This document shows, piece after piece, positions 294 through 63,921 of a stretch of 64,000 nt of DNA. The stretch is taken from assembly GCA_014805025.1 (NCBI GenBank), contig JAAUYR010000039.1, positions 256 to 64,255 of the forward strand, written 5' to 3'. The position numbers were made by a program, and so were the translations under genes. The DNA is from Clostridia bacterium. GTDB lineage: Bacteria > Bacillota > Clostridia > Christensenellales > Borkfalkiaceae. The stretch's first letter is position 1, and every line of letters begins with the position of its first letter. The notes under the pieces are model-generated. The model searched no databases, had not been told where the DNA came from, and saw only the letters and a program-made list of their open reading frames with translations.

Positions 294-1037
294 TTATCCG
301 TATGTTCTTTCAAGCTCGTGCTGAATTTCCTCGGCGCGTGCAATTTGTTCATTGAGTTTCCATTTGCCGATATTCTTTCCATTTCTCAAAAACATTGAGC
401 CGCATTGATGAAAATAGAATTCAATATTTCTTTCTTTGGCTTCTAAATACAAATTCTTTACCCACTCGAACTCAATAGGGCGCACGTCGGCTTTCGCGGC
501 CATTTCGCCGCCCACGTTTACGCACTTAATTAGTCCCGTATCCAGATATTTACCAAGTGAAATCGGGCCTATCAGCGGAGAGCAAAATACTTCCCTGTGT
601 TTTACGGGCGCTTCCAAAAAGTGCTTCAACCGAATATCTGCCATTTCCTGATTTTCAATGGAAATACTCATATAAACGTGGTCCCAGCCCTCGCCCCAGT
701 CGGGAGGAACACAGTCCTTGATTCTCTCCGGCCTTTTTGTAGTCAAAACAAACCGGCAGTCTCTTCTCCTTCTGATAAAATCCCAACAGCCCTCTCTCCA
801 TTCGTCGGCTTCTTCAATGAAGAAATCGGAGGAAAAGCAAAGCTTAACCAAGGAGCCGGGCGGACAGTCCTTATCTTTCAGTTCATAGGTTGTTTTACCC
901 TTTTCAAGTTTTGTGGTATCCCTTCCGTATCTTTGGTCCATTTTGTAAACAAAGCAATTCTTGCAGCCTGCACTTACTTTTTTGCAACCGTGCCAAGGAT
1001 TCCACGGAATAGCTTTTTCAATTTCGTTATTCTGCAT
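294..1037 (-). CDS. Phage Gp37/Gp68-family (DUF5131) protein
   Basis: The N-terminal WNPWHGCKKVSAGCKNCF matches the WNP-x-GC-x5-GC-xx-C signature of PF07505. Length is 247 aa. Confidence 0.8.
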   Translation of the reverse strand: MQNNEIEKAIPWNPWHGCKKVSAGCKNCFVYKMDQRYGRDTTKLEKGKTTYELKDKDCPPGSLVKLCFSSDFFIEEADEWREGCWDFIRRRRDCRFVLTTKRPERIKDCVPPDWGEGWDHVYMSISIENQEMADIRLKHFLEAPVKHREVFCSPLIGPISLGKYLDTGLIKCVNVGGEMAAKADVRPIEFEWVKNLYLEAKERNIEFYFHQCGSMFLRNGKNIGKWKLNEQIARAEEIQHELERTYG

Positions 1038-1043
1038 AGTTGC

Positions 1044-1072
1044 ATTATATCAAATTCAGTAGATTTAGTCAA
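1044..1072 (-). promoter_or_regulatory. Sigma-A-type promoter TTGACT-17-TGaTATAAT, with the ATG 6 nt after the -10 (leaderless type)
   Basis: -35 at 1067-1072, 17-nt spacer, -10 at 1044-1049, ATG at 1037, no SD. Confidence 0.6.
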
Positions 1073-2249: not shown

Positions 2250-3626
2250 TCAGTCGCGTTTTCTGTTTGCTCTTTTAACAAAATAAACAATCAACACCAC
2301 CGCTCCGCTTACAACATATATCGGCAGTCCCAGAATCGGTAGCGCTAATAAAAGTACTGCAAAAATTATAAATAGAAGCACAATAACGGAAAGATTTCCG
2401 GAGTCATATTCCGGCTCTTCCACCGCGCACATTGTAAAGCTAAGCTCGCCTTCGGGCAGGGCGTCCAAAAGCAATTTATAGCCGCTGTCGGTCTTTTCGA
2501 ATTCGAAGTAGCTGTCCAAAATATAGTACGGAGTATTTACGCGAACTTCCAGCTCGCCGAAGCTGCTCCACTCCTTAGCCGGAGACAGCAGATATTCGAA
2601 CTCGTATTTGTAAGGCTTATAACTTGTTATAATGCGCGGATACAATGGCGCGATAACCGTATTTAAACAGGTTGCGTGCGGTTCAAGGTTTAACTTGTAA
2701 ACGTACCAGCGCATAAACGAGCCTTCGTTAAACTCTGCAAAATGCAGGTCTACTATATCGCTGCCGGCAATACTTGATACGACCGCATTGTAATAGTCGA
2801 TATCCGAAACCTTGCTGCCCACGCTGCGGTACGAAAGCACGAACTCCTTAAACAGAGTTTGGGTTGTAGCCGTCAGCTTCGCCGAAGCGTTTATGACTTT
2901 CGTCCCGTTGGTAAACTGCCATTTAAGCGTAGATAAATCGACCTCGCCGCCGATAGAATAAAACCTGAATTTTTCGCCGCTGATTAAATAATTTTTTAAA
3001 GTTACCGTTTTGCCGTTTGAGGAGTAATATCCGTAACCAGCATACTTTATATTTTTGTCGCGAACGAAAGTCGCCTCCACCTCAACCGCGTCGCGTAAAC
3101 CGGCGGTAACGGTAAACTCGTACGTATAAACGGTTTTGTCTTCGGTAAAGAATTTATCGGTTATAAAACCGTCGTAAATTTTGTTGCTGTCGGAAGTAAA
3201 ATCAAAGCGGCTGTAACTTACGGTATGCCTGAGCTCCGCATCTGCGGAAACTCCGTCTATCGTAACCCCGAATTTATCGGTATCAAAATCGTCGCAGTAG
3301 CTTGGCGGATACCCGAACGGAAACGCAAGCGTCGCCTCGATTTGGCTGTCGGTAGGGTTTTTAAAGACGTACTGCGCCGTAACCTTGCCCTTATAATCTT
3401 CCGAAACGTTTAATTCGGGAAATTCCGGCACGTCGAATGTCAATAATTCGCTTTCGACTTCTAACGGGCAGTTTTCACCCGTAAACGTCGCGCCGGCGAA
3501 CGTAGTGCCGTACCAGTTTTTCGGCCCGGAATTTGCGCTTGCCGTAATATTTGGCGCTAAAAACGATATAAGCGCTGCCGCGGCAAGTCCGCAAGCAGCC
3601 AGATACGGTTTGATTTTACTTTTCAT
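2250..3626 (-). CDS. Exported protein with a C-terminal membrane anchor, unknown function
   Basis: Signal peptide KPYLAACGLAAAALISFLAPNITASA and a C-terminal TM helix followed by KRANRKRD. The start is set at ATG 3626, just downstream of a consensus promoter. Confidence 0.6.
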   Translation of the reverse strand: MKSKIKPYLAACGLAAAALISFLAPNITASANSGPKNWYGTTFAGATFTGENCPLEVESELLTFDVPEFPELNVSEDYKGKVTAQYVFKNPTDSQIEATLAFPFGYPPSYCDDFDTDKFGVTIDGVSADAELRHTVSYSRFDFTSDSNKIYDGFITDKFFTEDKTVYTYEFTVTAGLRDAVEVEATFVRDKNIKYAGYGYYSSNGKTVTLKNYLISGEKFRFYSIGGEVDLSTLKWQFTNGTKVINASAKLTATTQTLFKEFVLSYRSVGSKVSDIDYYNAVVSSIAGSDIVDLHFAEFNEGSFMRWYVYKLNLEPHATCLNTVIAPLYPRIITSYKPYKYEFEYLLSPAKEWSSFGELEVRVNTPYYILDSYFEFEKTDSGYKLLLDALPEGELSFTMCAVEEPEYDSGNLSVIVLLFIIFAVLLLALPILGLPIYVVSGAVVLIVYFVKRANRKRD

Positions 3627-3635
3627 AGCTCTTTT

Positions 3636-3664
3636 ATTATACTTAAATAACCACATTTTGTCAA
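3636..3664 (-). promoter_or_regulatory. Consensus promoter TTGACA-17-TATAAT, with the ATG 9 nt after the -10
   Basis: -35 at 3659-3664, -10 at 3636-3641, ATG at 3626. Confidence 0.65.
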
Positions 3665-3687
3665 TTGCACCATTAGACGCAAATAAA

Positions 3688-3716
3688 TTGACAGCTATTA
3701 TTTATTGGGATATAAT
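3688..3716 (+). promoter_or_regulatory. Consensus promoter TTGACA-17-TATAAT, with the ATG 6 nt after the -10 (leaderless type)
   Basis: -35 at 3688-3693, -10 at 3711-3716, ATG at 3723. The ORF-track TTG start at 3705 lies inside the promoter. Confidence 0.65.
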
Positions 3717-3722
3717 AATATT

Positions 3723-4523
3723 ATGCACATTGAAAAGCTAAAACTCAGAAAACTGAACAACACTCGTGATTTGGGCGGTTTTGCCACGACGGACGGCAGA
3801 AAAATAAAGCGCGGAAAGCTGATAAGGAGCGGCAAGCTTTACAAGCTGCCTAAGAGCACGCAAAAAAAGCTTAAAGATATCGGCGTTTCGACAATTGTTG
3901 ATATGCGCATGGATTTGGAATGTCAGGAATACCCCACCACCGTCATGGAAGGAGTAAACTACGTGCGCGTGCCTATCGTGTGCACGGCGACTACTGGAAT
4001 TACTCACGAAAAAAAGAGTATGGCACGCACGATGCTTGCCGAAAGCAAGCGCATAAAACACGAGTTCGGCGACTGCGACAATTATATTTTAAAGACTTAC
4101 GAGATAATACTTTTCGACGAGGCCTCGCAGAAAAAACTCAGAGAATTTTTAGACCTTGTAATTAAGGAAGAAGGCTGTATCTTGTGGCATTGCAGTGCCG
4201 GAAAGGACAGAACGGGAATTTCCGCAATGCTTTTGGAAGCGCTTTTGGGCGTTGACGAGGAAACGATAATCGACGATTACGTTATGTCGGATACCTTCCA
4301 GAAAAACAAGCGCAATCTGCAAAAGCTCGGGCTTTGGCTGATGCCGGCGTTCTTTAAATTCAAAGTATTCTTATTCCACCAGATGGCGGCGAAACCGATG
4401 TATATATCGGGGGCAATGAACGCAATTAAGGAGCGATACGGCTCGGTTAAGGAATACTGCAAACAGGCTTTGGGACTGACCGAAGAGGATATCGAAACAC
4501 TCAAAAACAAATATCTTGAATAA
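3723..4523 (+). CDS. Protein-tyrosine phosphatase (Y_phosphatase3-like)
   Basis: CX5R P-loop HCSAGKDRTG and an N-terminal NTRDLGG motif. Confidence 0.8.
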   Translation: MHIEKLKLRKLNNTRDLGGFATTDGRKIKRGKLIRSGKLYKLPKSTQKKLKDIGVSTIVDMRMDLECQEYPTTVMEGVNYVRVPIVCTATTGITHEKKSMARTMLAESKRIKHEFGDCDNYILKTYEIILFDEASQKKLREFLDLVIKEEGCILWHCSAGKDRTGISAMLLEALLGVDEETIIDDYVMSDTFQKNKRNLQKLGLWLMPAFFKFKVFLFHQMAAKPMYISGAMNAIKERYGSVKEYCKQALGLTEEDIETLKNKYLE

Positions 4524-8946: not shown

Positions 8947-8975
8947 TTGACAACTTCGCGCGCGTGTGTTAAAAT
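8947..8975 (+). promoter_or_regulatory. Promoter TTGACA-17-TGtTAAAAT, with the ATG 11 nt after the -10
   Basis: -35 at 8947-8952, -10 at 8970-8975, ATG at 8987, no SD. Confidence 0.6.
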
Positions 8976-8986
8976 TTGCAAAGTCA

Positions 8987-10333
8987 ATGAAAAGAAAATT
9001 CAAAATAAAACTTTCCGTGTGGCAGTTTTTAGCACTCGGATATTTAGCGGTAATTGCCGTGGGAAGCGTTTTGCTTGTTTTGCCGATAGCCTCGGCGGAC
9101 GGCACGTCAACGTCGTATCTGGACGCGCTGTTCGTTGCGACCGCGTCGGCCTGCGTTACCGGACTTTCTACCGTGGACACTGGCACGCACTGGTCGCTGT
9201 TCGGGCAGATTGTTCTGCTCGTGCTCATTCAGACGGGCGGACTCGGTTTTATGACGTTCGTTTCGACTGTGTTTTTAATGTTCAAACACAGAATGAGACA
9301 GTACGAACGCAAGGCGCTGCTTTCCGATGCCGGCGCAATTAATTTTTACGGAATTTCAAAACTTGTAAAGCGCATTTTTATAGGCACGGCGATTTTCGAG
9401 CTTTTAGGCATGTGCCTTTTGTGCATCAGGTTTATTCCCGAGTACGGCGGCATAGGCGCTTACTACGCTTTGTGGCACGCCGTTTCGGCGTTCTGCAATG
9501 CCGGTATGGATTTGGTCGGAGTCGGCGGAACTTCGCTTTCGGCGTACGCAACCGACCCGTTGGTCAGCCTTACATTTTGCTTTTTGATAACCATGGGCGG
9601 ACTCGGCTTCATAGTTTGGAGCGATTTTATAGATTGCCGGGGCAACTTCAAAAAAATGAAGCTGAACACAAAAATTATCCTTTTGTGGAGCTTGATTATA
9701 AACGTCGTTGCAACCGTGCTGTTTTTCGCATTCGAGTACAACGGTCAGGCGTTTAGCGGATACAACTTCGGGGAAAAACTTTTGTGTTCGTTCTTTATGG
9801 CGGTATCCTCGCGCACGGCCGGCTTCTACACCACGGCACCCTCCGCGCTTTGCGACAGCAGCTATCTTCTGACGATTATTATTATGTTTATCGGCGGAAG
9901 CACCGGCTCGACTGCCGGCGGCATCAAGGTGGGAACTTTTGCCGTGATTATTATGGGTATGCTTGCGGTATTCCGCGGATATAAGGACATCAACATCGGC
10001 AAAAAGAGAATTGAGTATTCCCTGCTTTCGCAGGCGCTTGCAATTTTTACGGCGTGCCTTATGCTTATACTTATGGGGACTTTGGCGATTTGCGCCCTTG
10101 AAACCGACCCTGCCGTAACCTTTAACAGAGTGCTCTTCGAATGCGTTTCGGCTTTGGGTACGGGCGGACTCAGTCTTGATTTGACGCCACAGCTCAATAT
10201 CGGCGCGAAGTGCATAATTATTGTTTTGATGTACGCCGGCAGAGTAGGCATATTAACGCTTGCCTTAGCGCTCGGCGAAAAGCGCAGCATATCGGCGGTA
10301 AGAAAGCCGATAGACACCCTTCTTATCGGGTAA
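8987..10333 (+). CDS. TrkH/KtrB-family potassium uptake membrane protein
   Basis: 448 aa, polytopic, with repeated pore-loop GGLGF/TGGLS-type motifs typical of the Trk/Ktr/HKT family. Confidence 0.85.
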   Translation: MKRKFKIKLSVWQFLALGYLAVIAVGSVLLVLPIASADGTSTSYLDALFVATASACVTGLSTVDTGTHWSLFGQIVLLVLIQTGGLGFMTFVSTVFLMFKHRMRQYERKALLSDAGAINFYGISKLVKRIFIGTAIFELLGMCLLCIRFIPEYGGIGAYYALWHAVSAFCNAGMDLVGVGGTSLSAYATDPLVSLTFCFLITMGGLGFIVWSDFIDCRGNFKKMKLNTKIILLWSLIINVVATVLFFAFEYNGQAFSGYNFGEKLLCSFFMAVSSRTAGFYTTAPSALCDSSYLLTIIIMFIGGSTGSTAGGIKVGTFAVIIMGMLAVFRGYKDINIGKKRIEYSLLSQALAIFTACLMLILMGTLAICALETDPAVTFNRVLFECVSALGTGGLSLDLTPQLNIGAKCIIIVLMYAGRVGILTLALALGEKRSISAVRKPIDTLLIG

Positions 10334-12119: not shown

Positions 12120-12138
12120 GCGCTTCATAAAATGAACT

Positions 12139-12627
12139 ATGACAACTTTTCAGTATGACAGAACCGCCGCCGTAGCTTACGCTAAAAAATGGGCTTTCGG
12201 CAGAAACCCGGCGTTTTACGATTTCAGCAAGATAGGCGGCGACTGCACCAACTTCGCCTCGCAATGCATTTACGCAGGAGCCGGAGTTATGAATTTTACA
12301 CCCGAACTCGGCTGGTTTTACCGCTCGACAAACGACAGAACGGCAAGCTGGACCGGAGTTGAATTCTTACATAACTTTTTAGTGACAAACCAGGGCGTGG
12401 GGCCGTTCGGTAAGGTCGTGCCTTTGAGCGAAATAGAAATAGGCGATATTATTCAACTTGGCACTGCCACGGGGGACTTCTACCACTCCCCCGTCGTTGT
12501 CGGCTTTTCTCGCGGACAGATACTCGTTGCGGCGCACACCTACGACGCGTACAACAAGCCTCTCAATTCCTACAACTTCGCAAAGTCCCGACCCATACAT
12601 ATACTGGGGGTAAGGAAAGACGATTAA
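12139..12627 (+). CDS. Putative amidase-domain protein (Amidase_6-like)
   Basis: YDRTAAVAYAKKWA...GGDCTNFASQCIYAG resembles the PF12671 family, with a papain-like catalytic Cys context. Confidence 0.6.
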   Translation: MTTFQYDRTAAVAYAKKWAFGRNPAFYDFSKIGGDCTNFASQCIYAGAGVMNFTPELGWFYRSTNDRTASWTGVEFLHNFLVTNQGVGPFGKVVPLSEIEIGDIIQLGTATGDFYHSPVVVGFSRGQILVAAHTYDAYNKPLNSYNFAKSRPIHILGVRKDD

Positions 12628-22716: not shown

Positions 22717-23631
22717 TTAACCGCCTAACTCAATCATTCGCTCGATACATTTAACCGATTGTTGCCTTTCCTGCTCGTCAATAATTATTTCTTCGCCGCC
22801 CTCGCCAAGAATACAGTTTAAAACGTCGGGAAGCGTGGTAATTTTCATATTATGGCACAATAAATCTTTGGAAAGCGGATAAAACCGCTTTTCGGGGCAC
22901 TTATACTGCAAATGCTCTACAATTGCGTTTTCCGTGCCTATTATAAACTCTTTGGCCTCGGAGTTTATTGCAAAATCCATTATCCCAGACGTCGAGCCGA
23001 CGTAGTCTGCAAGCTTTACGACCTCCGGACGGCACTCGGGGTGCACCAAAAACAGCGCGTTCGGGTGCGCGGCTTTTGCTTTAAGCACGTCCGATTTTTC
23101 CATTTTAGCGTGCGTAGGGCAGCCGCCCGACAAAAGCTTGAAGTTCTTTTCGGGAACCTGTTCTTTTACGTAAGTGCCGAGGTTGATATCGGGAATGAAC
23201 AATATGTTCTTTTCGGGCATTGCGCGGCAGATTTTAACCGCGCTTGACGAGGTTACGCAAACGTCGGCTATGGTTTTAAGCTGAGCCGTGGTGTTCACGT
23301 ACGCGACCACCGCGTAATCGGGGTACATTTTTTTGACCTCGGCAATTACCTCTCTATCCATCTGCTCCGCCATAGGACAGCCGGCCTGAGGGTTTGCAAG
23401 ATAAACGCGCTTTTCGGGCGCGAGCATTTTAACCGTTTCCGCCATGAACCGCACGCCGCACATAATAACGGTGCTCTGTTTTGCAGTTTTAGCCTTTAAC
23501 GCAAGTGCGTAGCTGTCGCCCGTGAAATCAGCAACCTCGCAAATATCTTCCGACATATAGCTGTGCGCCAGAATACATATATCGCGCTCGGCTTTGAGCT
23601 TTAAAATTTTCTGTTGTAAATCTTTAACCAT
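22717..23631 (-). CDS. nadA: Quinolinate synthase
   Basis: ILAHSYM, CGVRFMAE and HPEC motifs. Length is 304 aa from MVKDLQQ. Confidence 0.9.
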   Translation of the reverse strand: MVKDLQQKILKLKAERDICILAHSYMSEDICEVADFTGDSYALALKAKTAKQSTVIMCGVRFMAETVKMLAPEKRVYLANPQAGCPMAEQMDREVIAEVKKMYPDYAVVAYVNTTAQLKTIADVCVTSSSAVKICRAMPEKNILFIPDINLGTYVKEQVPEKNFKLLSGGCPTHAKMEKSDVLKAKAAHPNALFLVHPECRPEVVKLADYVGSTSGIMDFAINSEAKEFIIGTENAIVEHLQYKCPEKRFYPLSKDLLCHNMKITTLPDVLNCILGEGGEEIIIDEQERQQSVKCIERMIELGG

Positions 23632-23643
23632 ATAGCTTTTTAG

Positions 23644-23672
23644 ATTATACACGAAAGCTTTTATTTTGTCAA
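23644..23672 (-). promoter_or_regulatory. Consensus promoter TTGACA-17-TATAAT, with the ATG 12 nt after the -10
   Basis: -35 at 23667-23672, -10 at 23644-23649, ATG at 23631, no SD. Confidence 0.65.
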
Positions 23673-32094: not shown

Positions 32095-32398
32095 CTACAA
32101 TCCTCCCGACGATATCGTTTACCTGCTTTTGCGTTTTGCCCAAGACCCCGTCTGCATAGTCGCGAGCTTTAACCTCGCTTTCCTTTAACGCGGCCTCATA
32201 GTTTTTCTGAGCCTGCTCTTCGGCCTTTTTTATGCTGCTTTCGCGCAGAGCTTTAAGCTGCGCCTCGCCCGACTTTTCGATACGGGCAGACTCCGCGTCG
32301 GCTTCCGAAAGAATACGCGCGGCTTTTTCCTGAGCTTCAAGCTTTATTGCCGCGGCTTTTGCCTCGGCCTCGTTTATTGATTTGATTAAATCTTCCAT
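32081..32398 (-). CDS. ntpF: V-type ATPase peripheral-stalk subunit G/H-like (E. hirae NtpF position)
   Basis: 105 aa, Ala/Glu/Lys-rich coiled coil. First gene of the operon. The start is set at ATG 32398, downstream of the promoter. Confidence 0.7.
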   Translation of the reverse strand: MEDLIKSINEAEAKAAAIKLEAQEKAARILSEADAESARIEKSGEAQLKALRESSIKKAEEQAQKNYEAALKESEVKARDYADGVLGKTQKQVNDIVGRIVGGVS

Positions 32399-32406
32399 TA
32401 TTATTA

Positions 32407-32435
32407 AGTTTAGCATTTTTACTGTTATTTTGCAA
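32407..32435 (-). promoter_or_regulatory. Promoter TTGCAA-17-TAAACT for the V-ATPase operon, with the ATG 8 nt after the -10
   Basis: -35 at 32430-32435, -10 at 32407-32412, ATG at 32398, no SD. Confidence 0.5.
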
Positions 32436-35201: not shown

Positions 35202-36528
35202 AAGCGTAACCGTATTTTTTGCGGAAAGCCAAAATCAGGCTTGCCGTCACAATTAAGGAAAGTATATCGGCAAAGCAAGTCGCCGACCAGACCCCGTCAA
35301 TACCGAGCCAAATCGGTATAACCATTACCGCGGCGATTTGGAAAACGAACGTCCTCGAAAACGAGATTATTGCCGAAATAAGCCCGTTATTCAGTGCGGT
35401 AAACAGCGACGACCCGAATACCGAGAAGCCCGATATAATGAATGCTATCGAGTAAATCCTGAGCCCCCTGACCGTCATATCGAACAGCGCGCCGTCGAAC
35501 CCGAACATTTTTACCGCGGGGTAAGCCAAAGCCTCTGCAAGCCCCGTCATGACAACTCCCGCTATCGAGACAATTATAAGGCTTTTCTTAAACAGATTTT
35601 TAAGTTCGTCTTTATTGCCCGCGCCGTAGTTAAAGGCGATAAGCGGTGCGCTACCAACTGCATAGCCCATATATATCGCGGCGAATACCATCATTATATA
35701 TCCTATTACAGCGTATGCCGCAAGTCCCTCTTTGCCCACAAGTTGCATTACCTGATAGTTGTAAAGCATCATTACGACCGCCGCGGATACGTTTGAGAAG
35801 AATTCCGAAGAGCCGTTTGTTACCGCTTTTAAAAAGGCTTTGCCGTAAAACCTGGTCTTGGTTAGTCTTAGCAGACTGTTGTTTTTGCGGACGAAATATA
35901 TAACGGGAACTAATCCACCGAAAACCTCGCTCGCAATTGTTGCAATTGCCGCGCCCGTAAGCCCCAACCTGACCCCAGCAACCAGCACTGCGTCCAAAAT
36001 TATATTTGTTAAACCCGCCGCAACCGTAACTATAAGCCCGAGGCGAGGCTTTTCCGCCGTGACGAAAAAGCTTTGAAATATGTTTTGCAGAATAAAGAAC
36101 GGTTGCCCCGCCAATAAAATTCTGCCGTAAAGAACGCAGTAATCAAAAAGTTGCCCTTCCGCACCGAAAAGCCTTGCAACGTGCGGCACGATAAACTGCC
36201 CAGCTACAGCTATTGTTATACCTATGCCCAAAGTAACGTAAACGAGCATAGAAAAGTATTTATTTGCCCTTTCGTGGTCACCCTCGCCCAAAGTCTTTGA
36301 AACGAGCGCACTGCCGCCCGCGCCTATCATAAAGCCGATAGACCCCAACACTATGATAAGCGGAAATATTAAATTTATAGCTTCAACCGCTTCTTCGCCG
36401 ACTATGTTAGAAACGAATAGTCCGTCAACTACGCTGTAAACGTTGACGAAAACCATCATTACTATCGAAGGCGCAACGAATAATAATAATTTTTTAAACG
36501 TGAAATGGTCGGATAACTGAATTCTCAT
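35200..36528 (-). CDS. MATE-family efflux transporter
   Basis: 442 aa, 12-TM profile with MATE-like repeats. Confidence 0.8.
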   Translation of the reverse strand: MRIQLSDHFTFKKLLLFVAPSIVMMVFVNVYSVVDGLFVSNIVGEEAVEAINLIFPLIIVLGSIGFMIGAGGSALVSKTLGEGDHERANKYFSMLVYVTLGIGITIAVAGQFIVPHVARLFGAEGQLFDYCVLYGRILLAGQPFFILQNIFQSFFVTAEKPRLGLIVTVAAGLTNIILDAVLVAGVRLGLTGAAIATIASEVFGGLVPVIYFVRKNNSLLRLTKTRFYGKAFLKAVTNGSSEFFSNVSAAVVMMLYNYQVMQLVGKEGLAAYAVIGYIMMVFAAIYMGYAVGSAPLIAFNYGAGNKDELKNLFKKSLIIVSIAGVVMTGLAEALAYPAVKMFGFDGALFDMTVRGLRIYSIAFIISGFSVFGSSLFTALNNGLISAIISFSRTFVFQIAAVMVIPIWLGIDGVWSATCFADILSLIVTASLILAFRKKYGYA

Positions 36529-36537
36529 AGTCCGTCT

Positions 36538-36566
36538 ATCATAAGGGATATAAAAATTTAAGTCAA
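36538..36566 (-). promoter_or_regulatory. Promoter TTGACT-17-TATGAT, with the ATG 9 nt after the -10
   Basis: -35 at 36561-36566, -10 at 36538-36543, ATG at 36528, no SD. Confidence 0.6.
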
Positions 36567-36581
36567 CCGTTTAAACCGCGA

Positions 36582-36610
36582 TTGACATAATTTTTACTTT
36601 ATTATATAAT
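36582..36610 (+). promoter_or_regulatory. Consensus promoter TTGACA-17-TATAAT, with the ATG 12 nt after the -10
   Basis: -35 at 36582-36587, -10 at 36605-36610, ATG at 36623. Confidence 0.6.
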
Positions 36611-36622
36611 AAAGAAGTACTT

Positions 36623-37480
36623 ATGAAAAATATCATACAAAATAAAACATTGGACGAAGAACGCGCGCTTTACGGCGTTTGCGATACTCTTATTAAAAAC
36701 TGCACTTTTGCAGGCGAGACAGACGGCGAATCGGCATTAAAGGAATGTAGAAATATCGGGGTGGAAAATTGCAGTTTTTCGCTGCGCTATCCTCTGTGGC
36801 ATGCAGAAAACTTTTACGTTAAGGACTGCAAAACCGACGCTTTTGCCCGTGCCGCGCTTTGGTTCTGCAAGGACGGAGAAATCACATTAAGCACGCTTGA
36901 AGGCATCAAGGTTTTACGCGAGTGCGAACGCATAACCGTGCGAAACTGCAACATATCCTCGCCCGAATCGTTTTGGAAGTGCAAAAACGTTACCTTGAAC
37001 GACTGCGAAATCATATCCGAATATTTACTTTTGGGCAGCAGCGATTTTAAGCTTAAAAACGTAAAGATGAGCGGCAAGTATTCCTTTCAATACGTAGAGA
37101 ACGGAGTAATAGAAAACAGTACCTTCGACACAAAGGACGCTTTCTGGAACAGTAAAAACGTTTACGTTAAAGACAGCGTTTTAAAAGGCGAGTACTTAGG
37201 CTGGTATTCAGACGGCTTAACGCTTGAAAACTGCGTGATATGCGGCACCCAACCGCTCTGTTACTGCAAAAATTTGAAGCTTATAAACTGCCGCACCGAG
37301 GGCTGCGATTTAGCTTTTGAAATGTCCGACGTGGAAGCAACCATAATCGGCGACGTGCTTTCCGTTAAAAACCCCAAAAGCGGATTTATAGAAGCCGACT
37401 TCGTGGGCGAAGTTATAAAAACCGCCGCTCCCTCCCCTTGCACCGGTAAAGTAATAATACGAAATAAAAAAGCAATTTAA
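36623..37480 (+). CDS. DUF3737-like beta-helix repeat protein
   Basis: ERALYG..NCTF..GESALKE..RYPLWH and repeated (V/I)xNC(x)F units. Confidence 0.55.
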   Translation: MKNIIQNKTLDEERALYGVCDTLIKNCTFAGETDGESALKECRNIGVENCSFSLRYPLWHAENFYVKDCKTDAFARAALWFCKDGEITLSTLEGIKVLRECERITVRNCNISSPESFWKCKNVTLNDCEIISEYLLLGSSDFKLKNVKMSGKYSFQYVENGVIENSTFDTKDAFWNSKNVYVKDSVLKGEYLGWYSDGLTLENCVICGTQPLCYCKNLKLINCRTEGCDLAFEMSDVEATIIGDVLSVKNPKSGFIEADFVGEVIKTAAPSPCTGKVIIRNKKAI

Positions 37481-41472: not shown

Positions 41473-41501
41473 TTGACACCGCGCCGCCTTTATTCTATAA
41501 T
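41473..41501 (+). promoter_or_regulatory. Consensus promoter TTGACA-17-TATAAT, with the ATG 10 nt after the -10
   Basis: -35 at 41473-41478, -10 at 41496-41501, ATG at 41512. The ORF-track TTG start is the -35 hexamer itself. Confidence 0.65.
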
Positions 41502-41511
41502 TTTTAACCGA

Positions 41512-42216
41512 ATGAAATTACGAAATCCTTTTAAAAGCTTAACCAAATTCGAGTGGGCGCTTTGGATATGCTCGCTTGCCGCGGTTATAATATCTTTTTT
41601 TGCAGCGCGCAATACCGACTACGCAACACTCGCCGTATCTCTTATCGGCGTAACCTCGCTGATATTCGCCGCAAAGGGCGACCCGTTCGGGCTGATGATT
41701 ATGCTGGTATTCAGTCTTACCTACGCGTTCGTTTCGTACTGCTTCGGCTACTACGGTGAAATGATAATTTACCTTTGTATGCAGTTGCCCGTCTGTATTA
41801 CCTCGCTCGTAAGCTGGCTTAAACACCCTGCAAAAGAGGGCGGCGGTGAGGCCAAAGTTGGCAGTTTGCCCCCCAAGTATGCCGTAGTTATGTGTGTTTT
41901 GGCGGCGGCGGTAACAACTGCGTTCTACTTTATTCTGCGTGCGTTCAATACCGCGAATCTTATCGTAAGCACCCTGTCCGTAGGCACAAGTTTTATTGCG
42001 TTATACCTTATGGTATTCCGCGTTCCGGCGTACGCCGCGGCGTTCACGCTGAACGATATAGTGCTAATAGTTTTATGGTCGTTTGCCTGCGTGCAGTCGC
42101 TCAACTACATACCAATGGTCGTGTGTTTTACCGTATTCCTCATTAACGACATTTACGGCTTCATAAGCTGGACGCGCCGAAAGAAAAAACAAAACGAAAA
42201 GCCGTCGGAAGAATAA
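41512..42216 (+). CDS. pnuC: Nicotinamide riboside transporter PnuC
   Basis: 7-TM protein with a PnuC-like C-terminus (NDIYGFISW). It is adjacent to the NAD genes. Confidence 0.75.
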   Translation: MKLRNPFKSLTKFEWALWICSLAAVIISFFAARNTDYATLAVSLIGVTSLIFAAKGDPFGLMIMLVFSLTYAFVSYCFGYYGEMIIYLCMQLPVCITSLVSWLKHPAKEGGGEAKVGSLPPKYAVVMCVLAAAVTTAFYFILRAFNTANLIVSTLSVGTSFIALYLMVFRVPAYAAAFTLNDIVLIVLWSFACVQSLNYIPMVVCFTVFLINDIYGFISWTRRKKKQNEKPSEE

Positions 42217-45554: not shown

Positions 45555-46174
45555 ACGTTATACTTTGCCATAAGCTTTAAAAGAGTATTGAAATTATCGT
45601 TTAAAATATCCGACTCCGCAGGGGAAAGCGAGCCCTTTATCTGCAAAACCGCAAGGGTGTTTTTAAGCTTTTCCAGCTCCTGCCTGTCGCTTTTGCCGAG
45701 GTTCTTAGACAAAAGTTTATCGGTTACCGAAACGGCGTGCTCCAACCGCACGCTGTTTTTTGCCGCATGAACTTCGGGGTGCTGGGCCTTGGGCGGAGCA
45801 GGAGCGGCAACCTGCGGTAGCGCCGCCGCAATCGCGGGGGCCTCCACCTGCCGTATCTTTGCGGAAGTTTTGGAAACCGCACACAGCGCGCCGTACAATA
45901 AATACCCTATCACCCAGAAAAGCGCGGTAATCAAAACGGACTGCGCAAACTCGCACTTTAACAGGAACAAAGCGAGATTGACCGCGGCATATGCGTTAGT
46001 TAAGCACAAAAACGGGCGTTTGGAAAGTTGCTTTACCTTCCTCAATTTAAGCGAAAGTATAAAGCTTATCAAAAAGATAGCGGCAAACGACCCCCATACC
46101 GTCCATACGAGCGCGTCAAAGGGAATTTTAGCAACCAAAGCGTAAATTTTATTTGCAAATTCAGATAACATCAC
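45551..46174 (-). CDS. Hypothetical membrane protein
   Basis: Three predicted N-terminal TM helices, an Ala/Pro-rich linker and a helical C-terminus. No family recognised. Confidence 0.5.
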   Translation of the reverse strand: MMLSEFANKIYALVAKIPFDALVWTVWGSFAAIFLISFILSLKLRKVKQLSKRPFLCLTNAYAAVNLALFLLKCEFAQSVLITALFWVIGYLLYGALCAVSKTSAKIRQVEAPAIAAALPQVAAPAPPKAQHPEVHAAKNSVRLEHAVSVTDKLLSKNLGKSDRQELEKLKNTLAVLQIKGSLSPAESDILNDNFNTLLKLMAKYNV

Positions 46175-46246
46175 GCTTAAATTATAGCCGAATTATTTTA
46201 AAAACCCCCTCATATATGGTCGAAATAACACTTATTTTGTCTGTAA

Positions 46247-52500: not shown

Positions 52501-52700
52501 GCCAAAAACCTCGCAAACGTATAAACCGAGGTCAAAAAAGTTCCGCCAACCGCGGCGCAGATAGTGCGCTCGGCGGCAAGCGACAGCCTGTCCTCGCAGA
52601 AAACCACGGTTTTTTTGCCGAGTTTTTCGCCGTCCTGCACTAATTTTTTAAGTTTTTCAAGCGCCGAAGAAAGCGCGGCGCAACGGTAGGCTTTAATCAT
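49560..52700 (-). CDS. addB: ATP-dependent helicase/nuclease subunit B (RexB-like, no Walker A)
   Basis: C-terminal nuclease domain with the Fe-S cysteines CPY...CDYCKAGGSC. It overlaps addA by 8 nt. Confidence 0.85.
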   Translation of the reverse strand: MIKAYRCAALSSALEKLKKLVQDGEKLGKKTVVFCEDRLSLAAERTICAAVGGTFLTSVYTFARFLAAEKGNSGNVLSAQGSAMAVRMIIEEQKDKLQLFKKLSSSSAAQAVYDTIALLYSSRVSAEDVEKASVSGSILGGKLHDLAIIYSEYEKFLKSSGKQDRNGYLKQLGPVIESSPKIRGSRVIFLGFQAFTCTVTECVRAAFSSAESVFGLFTGGEEDIYVNEAFLSFTGAAAEFGGAETSFVEGGLLPEAEELRRGLFNPESFYKSAMPTDKVHVFEAADEEEELEFIAASIKKHVIDGGERYAKISVMLPDLDGGERALARVFKRFAIPYYADRQLPLAEHPLCAFIINYLLCALSGCNFSDVDAVIASPFFPAERGEKDIYRNYLLRLGNYRGGVRREPKKEISEEFGFDYETVTALRKTFLNGLDLITSKGVKSGICGGVRALLEGFDVQNKLKSLAESYKDERPTSAQFSARAYDAVLSVLSEAESLLNDTTTLKEFVKILKSGFAAMKISLIPPKSDAVFVGDLSATANTGTNVVFAARLTGDVPGASADCALLTDREISALEDVNLNISPKIRQVNARRSETIALNICAFRKQLYLTYPTRLGGEESGASEIISYASAIFSAPSGAALKAVDMKRIEKSGRAVPYYCSEKLPALKYLQKYASGDGASAVYEVLSKNGFKTEADGALKKRVRRDISCGQRLYLSYNGISPTALETYFSCPYLSFMRQGLKVKEREEGAVRAVDNGNFIHSVLQDLAPEVNGISDEPTLLNRAREIAEDKLKKPPYSSLADSKSGSFAAEALIGEAVKISLGMYSQIKNSSFEVSEAECKCEVNLGGGVKIFGRIDRVDKSGDMVRIIDYKTGAIDASAAKYYTGAKLQLPLYLLSVSEGKRAVGAYYFPAAIEYKEKQDGVFRLQGFMDGSDEVVSASDKSVQPKQKSEFVDAYLSGRKIDGAMPREDFAAFLEYSRLVADKGAQELISGNVTPSPAKGTCDYCKAGGSCNFAVGIDGAERKTTSVKCSDIAALVKNIKGGGDVE

Positions 52701-52706
52701 ACGTTC

Positions 52707-52715
52707 ATTATATCA
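52707..52715 (-). promoter_or_regulatory. Extended -10 TGaTATAAT, 6 nt upstream of the addB ATG
   Basis: TATAAT at 52707-52712 preceded by TGa. ATG at 52700, no SD, no good -35. Confidence 0.45.
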
Positions 52716-63679: not shown

Positions 63680-63720
63680 CTTGTCAAGAAAATCATTGTT
63701 TACTGTTGTAAAATTTGCCT

Positions 63721-63921
63721 ATGGAATTTGGCCAAAGATTTCGTGAAGCACGAGTACAAAACGGATTTACTCAAACGCAAATTGCAAATATGCTTGGCAT
63801 CGAGCAGTCCAACATAAGCGACTGGGAAAACAATATTTCCAGACCCGAATACGAAAATCTTATTGCTCTTGCAAAAATTTACGGCGAAACGCTTGAAACT
63901 TTGCTTGGCATTGAATTATAA
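63721..63921 (+). CDS. XRE-family helix-turn-helix transcriptional regulator (66 aa)
   Basis: GFTQTQIANMLGIEQSNISDWENN is a typical HTH_3 motif. TAAAAT lies 6 nt upstream of the ATG and there is no SD. Confidence 0.8.
   Translation: MEFGQRFREARVQNGFTQTQIANMLGIEQSNISDWENNISRPEYENLIALAKIYGETLETLLGIEL

Follow-up and report, generated by a model that had tools for sequence, protein, structure and literature searches.

Eleven genes in a 64-kb window of a Clostridia genome start 6–12 nucleotides (nt) downstream of a −10 hexamer and lack a Shine–Dalgarno (SD) site. Very probably, these genes belong to transcription units of a leaderless type, with the 5′ end on the AUG or only a few bases from it and no SD leader; we infer both the transcription start sites (TSSs) and the route of translation from the sequence. 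The window, i.e., the whole stretch of 64,000 nt that was analyzed, lies on contig C39 of an assembly comprising 1.32 Mb in 83 contigs, with 46.5% GC and an estimated completeness of 85%. The source organism is an uncultured, small-genome gut member of the Clostridia order Christensenellales. Relatives of its nadA gene were found in metagenome-assembled genomes from the gut of mouse, chicken, and rabbit, which are labeled Christensenella or Christensenellaceae, Candidatus Borkfalkiaceae, and Candidatus Coproplasma. A preliminary description of the window had listed the 11 ATGs together with their −10 hexamers, and all hexamers, gaps, and coordinates proved to be right.

The layout is seen in a divergent gene pair at positions 3624–3725, which carries the following two promoters:

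3624..3664, minus strand: TTGACA (3664–3659), 17 bp, TATAAT (3641–3636), 9-nt spacer aaaagagct, ATG 3626
3688..3725, plus strand: TTGACA (3688–3693), 17 bp, TATAAT (3711–3716), 6-nt spacer aatatt, ATG 3723

An independent consensus scan returned both promoters with 12 of 12 matches, which agrees with the earlier assignment of two TTGACA-17-TATAAT promoters ending 9 and 6 nt from their ATGs. The 96 bp separating the two ATGs equal exactly 9 + 29 + 23 + 29 + 6 nt, with 23 bp between the −35 boxes. As promoters and spacers occupy this interval completely, there is no space for leaders. ATG 3723 opens the gene of a Y_phosphatase3 tyrosine-phosphatase-family protein (PTP). ATG 3626 (anti-SD duplex energy −1.5 kcal/mol) opens a gene for a 458-aa predicted exported protein that belongs to no Pfam family and whose homologs align from residue 5–18 onward. 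A further in-frame ATG (3656, minus strand) is located ten codons upstream of ATG 3626, between the −35 and −10 boxes; a caller preferring the longest open reading frame (ORF) would prepend MWLFKYNKRA to the signal peptide MKSKIKPYLAACGLAAAAL.

The preliminary description had proposed a genome-wide survey of −10-to-ATG distances. We scanned 1116 ORF-derived genes of at least 90 aa, testing every in-frame ATG up to 80 codons from the ORF opening for a complete promoter (a −10 score plus either a −35 box at 16–18 bp or a TG extension) ending d nt upstream, where d is the number of nt between the end of the −10 box and the start codon. The blind scan retrieved nine of the 11 window sites; the other two are absent because they lie outside the gene set (a 66-aa gene and a gene masked by a shadow ORF). 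Five complete promoters in total ended at d = 0–5, followed by 28 at d = 6, 10 at d = 7, 4 at d = 8, 12 at d = 9, and 8 at d = 10. The counts then fell to nine for d = 11–13 together and about three at each distance from 14 to 21, before a second, broad mode at d = 22–40 that represents SD-led genes. Against a background of 2.1 complete promoters per position, used for all Poisson tests, this is a sharp excess at d = 6 (28 observed vs. 2.1 expected, P = 8e-22) and an excess at d = 7–10 (34 vs. 8.6, P = 4e-11). The 143 promoters matching the consensus at 11 or 12 of 12 positions behaved similarly, with 26 ending 6–10 nt and eight ending 11–21 nt before an ORF-opening ATG.

Codon identity and sequence context were likewise non-random. 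At d = 6–10, we counted 62 ATG, 2 GTG, 5 TTG, 16 ATA, and 14 AAG codons (Fisher P = 5e-13); GTG and TTG were thus at background level, and genes with a strong SD use GTG or TTG in 18% of cases. The base at −1 was T in 27 of the 28 starts at d = 6, compared to 164 of 345 ATG starts with a strong SD (48%; P = 1e-7), in 32 of 38 entries of a plain TATAAT-N6-ATG list, and in 24 of 34 starts at d = 7–10 (P = 0.01 against the 48% background). The median anti-SD duplex energy at all 71 leaderless ATG calls was +0.1 kcal/mol. Promoter-like hexamers occurring by chance or lying unused in AT-rich DNA, with transcription from further upstream and an SD-less, unstructured, A/U-rich leader, would be an alternative explanation. 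It fits the finding that a strong SD precedes only ~37–50% of genes across the order (strict test), that gaps of 11–13 nt are at background, and that looser promoter or −10 thresholds, applied in search of a larger hidden class, added only background and no further excess. However, it leaves unexplained the peak at a single distance, the restriction to ATG, the T at −1, the −35 boxes at 17 bp, the trough at d = 11–21, and the 96-bp divergent pair, which has no room for other promoters; we consider it improbable.

Regarding the extent of the class, we estimate ~50 genes (about 45–60), i.e., ~5% of genes. By a strict estimate, 59 of 629 operon-leading genes (9%) are of the leaderless type. Where a strong promoter lies within 200 nt, the fraction of operon heads is 60 of 258; for genes whose strong promoter is no more than 60 nt away, it is ~20%. 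The class had been described as large; it is not a majority. It does include operon heads, as had been suggested, namely those of the V-ATPase operon and addBA as well as trkH and nadA.

Besides the divergent pair, the window contains the following sites (hexamer, spacing, −10 box with its position, gap, and start codon):

1035..1072, minus strand: DUF5131 (phage Gp37/Gp68 family) gene; TTGACT, 17 bp, TGA-TATAAT (1049–1044), 6 nt, ATG 1037
8947..8989, plus strand: trkH; TTGACA, 17 bp, TAAAAT (8970–8975), 11 nt, ATG 8987
23629..23672, minus strand: nadA; TTGACA, 17 bp, TATAAT (23649–23644), 12 nt, ATG 23631
32396..32435, minus strand: first gene of the V-ATPase operon; TTGCAA, 17 bp, TGC-TAAACT (32412–32407), 8 nt, ATG 32398
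36526..36566, minus strand: MATE exporter gene; TTGACT, 17 bp, TATGAT (36543–36538), 9 nt, ATG 36528
36582..36625, plus strand: DUF3737 gene; TTGACA, 17 bp, TATAAT (36605–36610), 12 nt, ATG 36623
41473..41514, plus strand: pnuC; TTGACA, 17 bp, TATAAT (41496–41501), 10 nt, ATG 41512
52698..52715, minus strand: addB; extended −10 TGA-TATAAT (TATAAT 52712–52707) with the TG extension in place of a −35 box, 6 nt, ATG 52700
63709..63723, plus strand: XRE/HTH_3 repressor gene (66 aa); TAAAAT (63709–63714) with neither −35 box nor TG, 6 nt, ATG 63721

In line with the statement that most sites have a −35 box at exactly 17 bp, a box with at least 4 of 6 matches was located there in nine of the 11 cases (5–6 of 6 matches in eight, and TTGCAA at the V-ATPase gene). 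The exceptions are addB and the XRE gene, whose promoter is the weakest of all. The first V-ATPase operon gene encodes a G-subunit-like protein of 105 aa, with a V-ATPase_G_2 Pfam match below the gathering score. Both parts of the SD comparison were also borne out: anti-SD duplex energies at the 11 starts ranged from −4.0 to +2.9 kcal/mol, and strong GGAGG-type sites were found by the same strict test in 26 of 56 window genes, e.g., AAGGAGG at ≤ −7 kcal/mol. The longest-ORF start falls within or upstream of the promoter in six of the 11 cases (3705 TTG, 8966 GTG, 23703 GTG, 32479 TTG, 41473 TTG, and 3656 ATG), much as had been noted for several of them. Five of the 11 gaps measure 6–8 nt, others fall in the 9–10-nt range, which is enriched as well, and three measure 11–12 nt (trkH, nadA, and the DUF3737 gene). 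The latter three are less secure, as they are statistically inseparable from chance placement and the evidence for them is per-gene only. The window holds two further leaderless-type candidates, i.e., a TATAAT (46186–46181, minus strand; window 46171–46186) separated by 6 nt from GTG 46174 and by 9 nt from ATG 46171, and a TAAAAT (12128–12133, plus strand; window 12128–12141) 5 nt before ATG 12139.

The start codons themselves were examined by means of protein families and orthologs. If the true starts were located downstream, each with an SD of its own, the promoter-proximal ATGs would merely lie in normal 5′ leaders, and the gene at 3723 indeed has a strong SD-like match (−10.5 kcal/mol) among its in-frame candidates. 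In eight of nine window cases, however, the best SD among all in-frame candidates fell between −3.0 and −5.9 kcal/mol. In seven of the nine proteins with a family match, the Pfam profile starts at residues 2–20 (residues 2–11 in PTP, DUF5131, NadA, DUF3737, the V-ATPase G-like protein, and the HTH proteins, and residue 20 for the MatE profile), and the conserved N-termini of orthologs align to the proposed methionine. Mis-assigned starts are thus a very improbable explanation.

The upstream regions of orthologs differ between genes. For the PTP gene, 13 of 15 same-genus rows retain a −10 box at a distance of 6–7 nt from the aligned ATG, and the sequence of the 6-nt spacer differs; one same-genus ortholog has AAGGAG and a GTG start, and SD sites are present in other families of the order. 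Close relatives of nadA carry TATAAT 6–12 nt before a conserved MIKDL start, in other relatives a weak TAGGA(A/G) lies in a leader of 25–30 nt, and GGAG is found in distant Oscillospirales-type genomes. The 6–7-nt gap of addB recurs in four family orthologs (five loci including the window); others are SD-led, one of them with a TTG start. For trkH, the −10 box is positioned at 8–14 nt in ~7 family loci, with an SD in others. Same-genus orthologs of the DUF3737 gene (d = 12 in the window) showed d = 6 in four cases, d = 12 in one, a 29-nt leader in one, and an AAGGAG SD in one. MATE orthologs keep the MRIQLSDH start, mostly behind terminator-like hairpins or longer leaders, and pnuC orthologs have promoters at d = 13–14 or a structured leader. 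Judged by these alignments, a putative leaderless state is conserved for PTP in 13 of 15 rows and for addB, DUF3737, nadA, and trkH in part of the family. Orthologs in the genus and family either hold the −10-to-ATG spacing while the spacer drifts, or carry an SD instead, in some cases together with a GTG or TTG start. Spacing that is kept across drifting spacers is a further feature that chance hexamers do not explain; the SD-less starts of orthologs behind terminator-like leaders speak for that alternative.

How such promoters could yield leaderless mRNAs follows from the geometry of initiation. Bacterial RNA polymerase most often starts at the 7th base after the −10 box, and the start window of the E. 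coli enzyme extends over 6–10 nt after the −10 box. The housekeeping holoenzyme would bind the TTGACA-17-TATAAT or TG-extended −10 promoter, and at d = 6 its preferred start, the 7th base, would be the A of the ATG; T at −1 and A at +1 fit the pyrimidine(−1)/purine(+1) rule for start sites. At d = 7–9, the A of the ATG would occupy positions 8–10, inside the 6–10-nt start window, or a leader of 1–3 nt would result. As T at −1 is still over-represented at d = 7–10, many of these transcripts may start on the A of the ATG and others with 1–3-nt leaders. It is also conceivable, though rather unlikely, that gaps of 9–12 nt form a distinct class with leaders of 2–6 nt, whose translation might be inefficient or condition-dependent. 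The d = 7–10 shoulder is unusually large in this genome (34 vs. 28 at d = 6, compared to 2–6 vs. 6–25 in other genomes of the order), and several d = 9 spacers have a purine at position 7 after the −10 box, both of which would suit such a class. Against it, the persistent T at −1 (24/34) points to the A of the ATG as a frequent start base, and an A at position ≤ 10 is still inside the polymerase start window. Returning to the leaderless-type units, the same promoters at d = 10–12 (pnuC, trkH, nadA, and the DUF3737 gene) would plausibly, but less securely, yield leaders of 3–6 nt that lack an SD. On an mRNA with no space for an SD, the ribosome with initiator tRNA would bind the 5′ AUG directly. 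This 5′-terminal-AUG pathway is known for leaderless mRNAs (PMC6431027, PMC10783764).

Several observations weigh against a leaderless interpretation. Gaps of 11–13 nt were not enriched in the genome scan (9 observed vs. 6.4 expected, P = 0.2), and some of these cases have an SD inside the spacer; the proposal of leaderless or short-leader mRNAs is supported for d = 6–10 by distance, ATG restriction, T at −1, lack of SD, and ortholog spacing, but not for the longer gaps by enrichment. As the ATGs of MATE and pnuC orthologs lie behind terminator-like or structured leaders with no SD, a missing SD cannot by itself be taken as diagnostic in this genus. Save in the 96-bp divergent pair, an extra promoter further upstream may also give a leadered transcript. 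No public RNA run contained this DNA, and four metatranscriptomes searched at 80% likeness yielded nothing beyond dnaK and V-ATPase fragments from other organisms, with no 5′ ends.

To place these findings within the order, the same pipeline was applied to 335–400 kb of each of several other genomes, with the 60%-GC and 53%-GC genomes as negatives. Numbers of complete promoters were as follows:

own genome (family f1, 46.5% GC): 28 at d = 6, 34 at d = 7–10, 128 at d = 22–40
same-genus genome (f1, ~45% GC): 6, 4, and 46
1.0-Mb genome G090 (f32, 29% GC): 25, 6, and 40
f36 genome (41% GC): 12, 2, and 31
f40 genome (47% GC): 6, 4, and 31
f5 genome (53% GC): 3, 1, and 25
f8 genome (60% GC): 0, 0, and 20

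The d = 6 peak was present in four families (f1, f32, f36, and f40) and weak or absent in f5 and f8, and control codons gave no peak in any of the pipeline-tested genomes. T at −1 was found again in other genomes of the order (11/12 and 5/6). Since there is no peak at 60% GC and a sharp one at 29% GC, base composition is not the cause. Genome G090 (loci L211–L228, 335 kb) showed the sharpest leaderless signature among the genomes compared, with 25 promoters at exactly d = 6 among 283 genes (~9%) and 0–2 at neighboring distances.

We complemented this comparison by counting the pattern TTGA-N18-20-TANAAT-N6-7-ATG (vs. an N3-4 control) in 201 genomes of the order; this count is noisy and serves as a crude guide only. 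It gave ~2780 vs. ~1880 hits, and the ratios of d = 6–7 to d = 3–4 agreed with the pipeline by family: 3.2 for f36, 2.6 for f40, 2.2 for f32 and f25, 2.0 for f1, 1.1 for f5, 0.95 for f26, 0.7 for f8, and 0.5 for f41. Enriched families tend to have smaller genomes, which is a correlation among related genomes and not a test. Weaker SD use was rejected as a correlate: the strict-SD fraction was 0.37–0.51 in all seven genomes, with or without a d = 6 peak. S1-domain proteins are present; ribosomal protein S1 gave no explanatory lead. There is about an even chance that leaderless initiation is a lineage trait of several small-genome Christensenellales families and that the genus studied here may tolerate 1–5-nt leaders or a relaxed start window. 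If so, the order would offer a natural system for studying genes that switch their mode of initiation.

The mechanism is not new, and its frequency resembles that of streptococci. TSS mapping put the share of leaderless operons at 9% in S. pneumoniae, where a reporter proved efficient translation, at 8.6% in S. pyogenes, and at 9% in S. agalactiae; most of them are conserved across these species (PMC6212727, PMC6431027). Streptococci likewise belong to the phylum Bacillota, and their 9% of operons or mRNAs compares with ~9% of operon-leading genes here (59/629). In streptococci the state was shown experimentally, with a pbp2A reporter being translated efficiently, whereas here it is deduced for an uncultured member of the class Clostridia, order Christensenellales, whose own genome has a larger share of 7–10-nt gaps. 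Genomes placed in the leaderless group C by GeneMarkS-2, which holds 90% of Actinobacteria, 97% of Deinococcus-Thermus, and 36 of 1064 Firmicutes, share the Pribnow box 6–8 nt from the first genes of operons and the two start models, leaderless and SD (PMC6028130). They differ in a predicted 25–50% of leaderless transcripts, compared to ~9% of operon heads here (or 60/258 of those with a strong promoter within 200 nt), and in TAnnnT promoters instead of the full TTGACA-17-TATAAT.

In the survey of Zheng et al. (2011), 56 of 209 Firmicutes were predicted to have leaderless genes, on average 4.2% of genes and mostly in Lactobacillales and Mycoplasma (PMC3160421). These low-GC Firmicutes are similar in having a TAtAAT, often with a TG extension, ~10 nt upstream (2.4–16.6% of genes); that survey makes no mention of Clostridia, and the Christensenellales lineage was not sampled (PMC3160421). 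In Deinococcus-Thermus, a −10 element abutting the ORF is reported to drive leaderless expression as well, but in another phylum and at far higher frequency (PMC12340547). Within Clostridia, 15 leaderless genes are known from C. difficile (PMC7438776), and 4% of C. phytofermentans genes are potentially leaderless, most with another TSS and a ribosome-binding site (PMC5171806). The view that such a class departs from the textbook expectation for Bacillota was overstated in light of the TSS-mapped streptococci and the predictions for Lactobacillales and Mycoplasma, although the class is unusual for mapped Clostridia. A full-text literature search for leaderless combined with Christensenell* returned no report for this lineage, only unrelated papers.

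These results add uncultured gut Clostridia to the groups with a substantial class of leaderless genes, whereas the TSS maps of C. difficile and C. phytofermentans show few cases, and they suggest that the same gene repeatedly switches between leaderless and SD-led starts within one family. They also matter for annotation: longest-ORF or SD-trained callers will choose a TTG, GTG, or ATG within the promoter as the start, as for the six window genes mentioned above, and such mis-called starts add spurious N-terminal residues, also to signal peptides.

Regarding structured leaders, no Rfam leader or riboswitch was found in the intergenic regions of these genes or in the window. At six same-genus MATE ortholog loci (L251, L253, L254, and L256–L258), a GC-rich hairpin with a U-run is located ~60 nt upstream, ending 3–25 nt before the MRIQLSDH start, with no SD. 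It has no Rfam match and may act either as an attenuator or as a terminator for the gene upstream. A conserved structured leader also precedes a pnuC-like gene in nine same-genus genomes, and is missing from the window pnuC, at the following loci:

plus strand: L276:1400–1497, L283:1045–1142, L286:1391–1488, L288:1385–1482
minus strand: L280:2188–2285, L284:2191–2288, L285:2194–2291, L289:2188–2285, L290:1177–1274

A look-alike of its motif on contig C1 of the own genome probably reflects chance similarity, and comparison with Rfam 15 gave no family at gathering score or at E up to 1. The leader comprises a first hairpin with the loop CCACCGGGTA, a long second hairpin with the apex CGTTAGGTCTTTGAAG, and then a U-run 10–25 nt before the ATG. 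RNAalifold predicted 22 pairs with compensatory changes in 15, making this leader a candidate for an unnamed riboswitch or attenuator of Pnu-type transporters.

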